DNA of 4,368 nt from a virus. Lineage: Duplodnaviria > Heunggongvirae > Uroviricota > Caudoviricetes. Positions 2,315 to 2,404 of this stretch are shown here, piece after piece. The stretch lies in the IMG/VR virus record IMGVR_UViG_2671180915_000012; one strand, 5' to 3'. How positions within the stretch are numbered: the stretch's first letter is position 1; each line of letters opens with the position of its first letter. The notes below the pieces were generated by a model. That model had not been told where the DNA came from, searched no databases, and worked only from the letters and a program-made list of their open reading frames with translations. A program made the translations under genes and the position numbers.

Positions 2315-2404
2315 ATGAATAAACCCGTCTGTCTTGATGACTGGTTGATTGGCTTTAAAAGCTTATGCTGTACTTTGACCTTAATAGCTCTGCTAATAAT
2401 ATAA
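2315..2404 (+). CDS. Candidate small ORF, 29 aa, hydrophobic C-terminus (possible small membrane protein)
   Basis: GGAGAG sits 5 nt upstream of ATG 2315; ORF ends TAA 2402-2404. Peptide [29 protein letters not shown] has a polar N-terminus and a TM-like tail. Below the track's length cutoff; no homolog recalled. Confidence 0.25.

Follow-up and report, generated by a model that had tools for sequence, protein, structure and literature searches.

The open reading frame at positions 2315..2404 (+) of the 4,368-nucleotide stretch of Caudoviricetes DNA analysed here (the window) is ynfS, a catalogued 29-aa small-protein gene that E. coli and Shigella carry in lambdoid prophages and phages of the Qin type, situated in an accessory region and oriented opposite to late transcription. 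The account of the gene given below, taken as a whole, is in our view very probable. Data on the K-12 orthologue support the view that this ORF is genuine and translated, its Shine-Dalgarno sequence (SD) and frame being conserved in the allele of the window. Purifying selection on the YnfS peptide is nonetheless not detectable in population data and hence any function it has would be dispensable, weakly selected or recent. Two possibilities are then to be considered, a weakly selected membrane micro-protein and a translated ORF without function. As a discovery there is little new in this gene, which already has a name, a b-number, a UniProt entry, a Pfam family and documented translation; but it may exemplify a prophage micro-ORF that is robustly translated yet only weakly selected, or not selected at all, and the case bears on the question of how many "validated" small proteins are truly functional.

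The ynfS gene and its product

The frame opens with an ATG and closes with a TAA that is directly followed by a second TAA (2405-2407), and it specifies 29 aa in the list of ORFs, just as an earlier, sequence-only reading of this DNA had it. That reading also pointed to a strong and well-spaced SD, and a GGAGAG can indeed be read from the sequence at 2304..2309 (+), with 5 nt separating the hexamer, and 7 nt its GGAG core, from the ATG. The window contains 163 ATGs, counting both strands, and no more than 7 of them are preceded by a GGAG at a distance of 3-12 nt; these include the annotated starts of Q/ydfT and of ydfR (which also lies on the minus strand of the window) and the start of ynfS.

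The N-terminus of the peptide (MNKPVCLDD) is short, polar and acidic, and it is followed by a hydrophobic C-terminal segment; over the last 13 aa the Kyte-Doolittle values average 2.9. The hydrophobic end of ~14 residues noticed in the earlier reading is confirmed, since the 12 residues then quoted and the preceding S and L make 14. The uninterrupted hydrophobic run thus comprises 13-14 residues at the extreme C-terminus, and a typical transmembrane helix is longer than this. To span the bilayer, ~18-20 residues with a favourable insertion energy would be needed; the 19 residues L11-I29 include K15 and S16 and sum to ~ -0.8 kcal/mol on the Hessa scale. Membrane association of YnfS, as predicted from this composition, is plausible, and YnfS would probably be a tail-anchored micro-protein, kept within or alongside the inner membrane by its hydrophobic C-terminus. 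YnfS resembles the small inner-membrane protein AcrZ and the prophage proteins YnaM and YnfQ in being shorter than 50 aa, in having its own SD and a hydrophobic segment and in having come to light in the same screens, by tagging and ribosome profiling. It differs from them in that its hydrophobic run is located at the extreme C-terminus, with only 13-14 residues uninterrupted, and in that its membrane site is predicted only.

The sequence-only reading had considered the ORF to be unannotated; in fact, it is ynfS/b4750 in K-12, falls in Pfam family PF23697 and is carried in RefSeq as a "hypothetical protein" (WP_122995718.1). When window positions 1900-2700 were compared by megablast with the complete E. 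coli genomes, strain 2013C-4974 (CP027587) proved to be 100% identical, and there the PGAP annotation places cspF, a 90-nt CDS for this same hypothetical protein at the ynfS position, and ydfT in that order. The counterpart in K-12 MG1655 is ynfS (b4750, YP_009518791.1, 1642122-1642211), located between cspF and ydfT in the cryptic prophage Qin. In K-12, in CP027587 and in the alignment, the gene has the orthologous position, with cspF upstream and, downstream, a terminator and ydfT, the convergent Q gene. The two products are both 29 aa long and agree in 26 residues, the differences between the K-12 and window alleles being N3K, A22T and V23L; in addition, the window allele has a T to C change at the base preceding the ATG. 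The cspF-ynfS-ydfT segment is syntenic in the two genomes, with 96% DNA identity over 380 nt, and both the SD and the downstream bidirectional terminator are held in common. Against the Pfam family PF23697 ("YnfS") the window peptide scores 71.7 bits (cut-off 27) over positions 1-29 of 29. It shares with the K-12 peptide a 90% cluster of 52 members, and the source names in the UniRef cluster that holds the exact window peptide include "Protein YnfS ... YNFS_ECOLI". Of the two alleles that of the window is the rarer, with 259 contigs in public collections as compared with at least 1000 for that of K-12.

The evidence for translation comes from K-12. In VanOrsdel 2018 (PMC6001520), an SPA tag was introduced at the chromosomal 3' end of ynfS in MG1655 and YnfS was one of the 36 small proteins detected; a tetracycline ribosome-profiling screen had also flagged the gene. 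The search for a retapamulin or Onc112 initiation peak, which the sequence-only reading had proposed as a check, is positive for the K-12 orthologue, as both gave strong start peaks at ynfS (Weaver 2019, bioRxiv 10.1101/511675), although the level of the protein was low in spite of these strong initiation peaks (Weaver 2019, bioRxiv 10.1101/511675). A tiling-array study detected the transcript, and a 2024 y-ome paper places ynfS among the uncharacterised Qin genes. In our literature search we found neither a functional study of ynfS nor overexpression data on YnfS, and a search for b4750 returned unrelated papers only.

The cspF-ynfS module in the late region

The window comes from a lambdoid prophage of the Qin type and spans its late-region junction. 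Upstream of ynfS lies cspF (2048..2260, +; 70 aa, with a TTG start and an AAGGA SD), which is annotated in the genome that is 100% identical over 1900-2700. From its stop codon (2258-2260) there are 54 nt to the beginning of ynfS, and ynfS ends ~150 nt ahead of an intrinsic terminator at 2554..2577 that was identified by a plus-strand terminator scan and by folding. We consider this terminator to be bidirectional because its hairpin folds on both strands (-14.1 kcal/mol on the plus and -21.0 kcal/mol on the minus strand) and T-runs follow the stem on each; it would stop the cspF-ynfS RNA on the plus strand and act as tR' on the minus strand. A consensus scan of the plus strand revealed no promoter-like site between cspF and ynfS (2200-2314) and, given the terminator that follows, co-transcription is the simplest reading, with cspF as the probable partner of ynfS. 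The latter would then follow cspF as second cistron on a common mRNA ending at 2554-2577, and its translation would start independently at its own strong and invariant SD, as was shown for the K-12 orthologue.

The Q-type antitermination gene, a ydfT/quuQ homologue (2683..3435, -), is a 250-aa ORF that is annotated as ydfT in matching genomes. Between its stop codon and tR', the position on which the assignment is based, there is a putative late promoter pR' at 2623..2651 (-), recognized by eye from a TTGCAT (2651-2646) and a TAAAAT (2628-2623) that are 17 nt apart; the consensus promoter scan did not flag it. This candidate would leave a leader of only ~40 nt before tR'. Since the Q gene is on the minus strand (3435..2683), late read-through would run antisense to ynfS, and the geometry proposed in the sequence-only reading is therefore correct. 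This geometry relative to Q and tR' is generic, as cspF and ynfU are equally affected by it.

Farther along the window are cspB (1747..1532, -), ynfU (998..1168, +; 56 aa) and the holin gene essQ (779..564, -), all three taken from the list of ORFs and from annotation in relatives. The minus-strand order is thus Q, the terminator, cspB and the holin gene, with cspF-ynfS inserted on the plus strand between the terminator and cspB, and the module is deleted in phage Tritos. Its place between tR' and the lysis genes, its orientation against the late operon and its loss from a related phage mark it as an accessory ("moron") module.

Several other features of this region deserve mention. Between the holin gene and cspB the window has an intact ynfU, the gene for a small zinc-knuckle protein that was identified by Weaver et al. 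(bioRxiv 10.1101/511675). The 5' leader and coding region of cspB (1469-1908, -) give a full-length match to the Rfam cspA thermoregulator RF01766 (156.7 bits, E 5e-42), and hence this prophage cspB carries a cold-shock RNA thermosensor. Similar AAAACCCGC...GCGGGTTT hairpins are found at 1229-1250 and at 2554-2577, each between convergent genes (ynfU/cspB and ynfS/Q, respectively) and each folding as a terminator on both strands. Unlike K-12, the host prophage of the window has an IS1203/IS629-like insertion in its DUF968 (ydfU-like) gene, which is a 264-aa ORF at 3449..4243 (-) as compared with ~329 aa in relatives. Positions 4271-4368 are the left end of this IS3-family element, with the start of its first ORF (MTKNTRFSPEVRQR...); the top-ranked match over this segment is annotated as an IS1203-family transposase, and in most E. 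coli genomes the homology ends at position 4270 of the window.

The searches made indicate that ynfS is confined to the prophages of Escherichia and Shigella. A degenerate back-translated CLDDWLIGF motif had no match outside E. coli and Shigella among the 185,579 GTDB species representatives, the three records found all belonging to these organisms. Similarly, a tblastn search with the peptide of 50,697 phage records (E<=10) recovered five Escherichia phage records only and no distant relatives, and nothing significant was obtained from NCBIfam, PADLOC or PHROGs. On one Salmonella contig with a related csp gene, which we take to resemble cspH, no ynfS-like ORF follows that gene. Among 5426 complete E. 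coli genomes, 1531 matched cspF (2048-2260) and 1412 matched the ynfS region (2262-2440), which means that ~8% of the carriers of cspF are without ynfS.

The gene is dispensable for phage viability. Four isolated and viable temperate phages (2H10, HannyBb, PhiR42_1 and PhiR63_1) carry cspF-ynfS, whereas Tritos, also viable, is without ynfS. At its position 2710, Tritos has a 257-bp deletion that corresponds to 2251-2507 of the window and takes the end of cspF, including its stop codon, the whole of ynfS and ~100 nt downstream; CATGA microhomology is present at both edges. In E. coli CM128591.1, matches are limited to positions 1-164 of the cspF query and 113-179 of the ynfS-region query, which suggests a second and different deletion across the 3' end of cspF and the 5' part of ynfS.

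The deposited annotation of HannyBb calls for some caution in annotation transfer. Over the cspB-cspF-ynfS-Q segment (1194-4804) it lists ~20 tiny "hypothetical protein" ORFs, mostly on the minus strand, and cspB, cspF and ynfS are all missing from it, which looks like over-calling.

Allelic variation and the question of function

Loci collected with a back-translated YnfS motif were replaced as a sample, since such a motif selects for intact ORFs. In their stead we used an anchor at the 3' end of cspF, outside the ynfS ORF, and this gave 195 loci from IMG/VR (at least 120), from JGI/ENA metagenomes (61) and from those collected earlier. In 192 of the 195 ynfS is intact, with its ATG and all 29 codons; K15 is replaced by a stop in two loci and the ATG by ATA in one. 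The GGAGAG of the SD is invariant (195/195). There are no indels within the ORF in any of the 195 loci, and indels do occur ~45 nt or more downstream of it.

All of the sampled alleles are at least 90% identical and, consequently, the intactness of ynfS says little and the pattern of substitution says more. Within ynfS there are 2 synonymous changes and 12 that are non-synonymous or disruptive, including one nonsense and one start loss (pN/pS 1.64); in cspF there are 24 synonymous and 18 non-synonymous or disruptive changes (pN/pS 0.26), and the two genes differ significantly (Fisher p 0.006). The synonymous-substitution bias suggested as a check in the sequence-only reading is thus absent. 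The values for ynfS fit the neutral expectation (binomial p 0.75) and are at variance with a constraint like that on cspF, which is rejected (p 0.001). The proportion of variable sites is 14/90 in ynfS, 8/41 in the spacer preceding it and 40/213 in cspF, so that the density of variation in ynfS is not below that of the flanking intergenic DNA.

Such figures are what would be expected if ynfS were translated but functionless, that is, if in the 3' region of cspF an open frame happened to lie behind a strong SD-like sequence, as translational noise or as a very young proto-gene. Besides the pN/pS and the density of variation, the nonsense count (one observed, with ~0.5 expected among 14 random substitutions) agrees with this idea, as do the restriction of the gene to Escherichia and Shigella, its lack in ~8% of the cspF-bearing complete E. 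coli genomes and in the viable Tritos, the related csp gene on the Salmonella contig that has no ynfS-like ORF behind it, and the low level of the protein despite strong initiation. Yet with alleles at least 90% identical the test has low power, and some of the variation now segregating may be transient. The invariant SD and the lack of any indel in the ORF in 195 loci, with indels occurring ~45 nt or more downstream, also argue in the other direction. Most of the exchanges in the tail are conservative (residue 22 varies as A/T/G/V/S, residue 23 as V/L and residue 29 as I/M, and L/M is also seen) and maintain its hydrophobicity, and the curators of Pfam and EcoCyc have accepted YnfS as a protein. 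A translated ORF without function is a serious contender, although on balance we incline somewhat against it.

Proposed alternatives: toxin, effector and RNA element

The sequence-only reading likened the peptide to those of type I toxins. In an explicit form, YnfS would be a membrane-damaging peptide whose production is limited either by an antisense RNA or by the convergent late transcription that depends on Q, and in size class, hydrophobicity and prophage location it does resemble Hok, Ldr, TisB, Ibs and ShoB. The smallness of the protein and its hydrophobic C-terminus accord with such a role, as does the position of the gene beyond tR', on the strand opposite to that of the late transcription unit, and on the minus strand there is a promoter-like pair of hexamers (2425->2396) directed into ynfS. 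But this pair, the only antisense promoter-like site, matches at just 9 of 12 positions, and its -35 region differs among the alleles. A scan of 1500-2800 contained 7 sites of this kind, as against 3.7 +/- 1.8 in shuffled sequences, and no minus-strand terminator is found beyond 2425->2396 within cspF or ynfS. The sole Pfam match is PF23697, the YnfS family itself, and no toxin family was returned; PADLOC and NCBIfam are empty, and Rfam has neither an antitoxin nor any other sRNA at E<=1 in 2250-2550. Type I toxin mRNAs are tightly folded, whereas the RNA around the SD of ynfS (2250-2410) is not more stable than its shuffles (z -1.46). Finally, YnfS is translated and the tagged protein accumulates from the native locus in growing K-12 cells. 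YnfS is thus set apart from the known type I toxins by its lack of homology to them, of a cognate antisense sRNA and of a structured or occluded translation start, as well as by its expression during growth. That YnfS is a type I toxin is not demonstrable, and we judge such a role, for which our results offer no support, to be highly improbable. In the Qin prophage of K-12, hokD is ~3 kb away from ynfS.

A somewhat broader conjecture, to which we still give little credence, is that YnfS is a prophage membrane effector, acting on holin timing, on superinfection or on a host membrane protein, or else a conditional toxin. It would be made in the lysogen and be shut off when Q-antiterminated transcription collides or pairs with the cspF-ynfS mRNA.

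The conserved element might also be the RNA itself, either a structure in the 3'UTR of cspF or an sRNA derived from it, in which case the ORF would be incidental. The minimum free energy fold does pair the region of the cspF stop (2257-2274) with codons 13-18 of ynfS (2351-2366), which encloses the SD, and a 346-nt region that includes the terminator has a z of -2.56; but with the terminator removed the fold loses significance (z -1.46), 18 of 200 shuffles folding equally well. Rfam has no match at ynfS (E<=1) and the diversity of the sequences is too low for covariation, whereas ribosome initiation and a tagged YnfS protein have been published. We hold this explanation to be improbable in the extreme. 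As an observation in its own right, the segments 2257-2274 and 2351-2366 are copies of an AAGCTT-containing motif, and in the minimum free energy fold these can pair as a 15-bp interrupted helix around the SD and start codon of ynfS.
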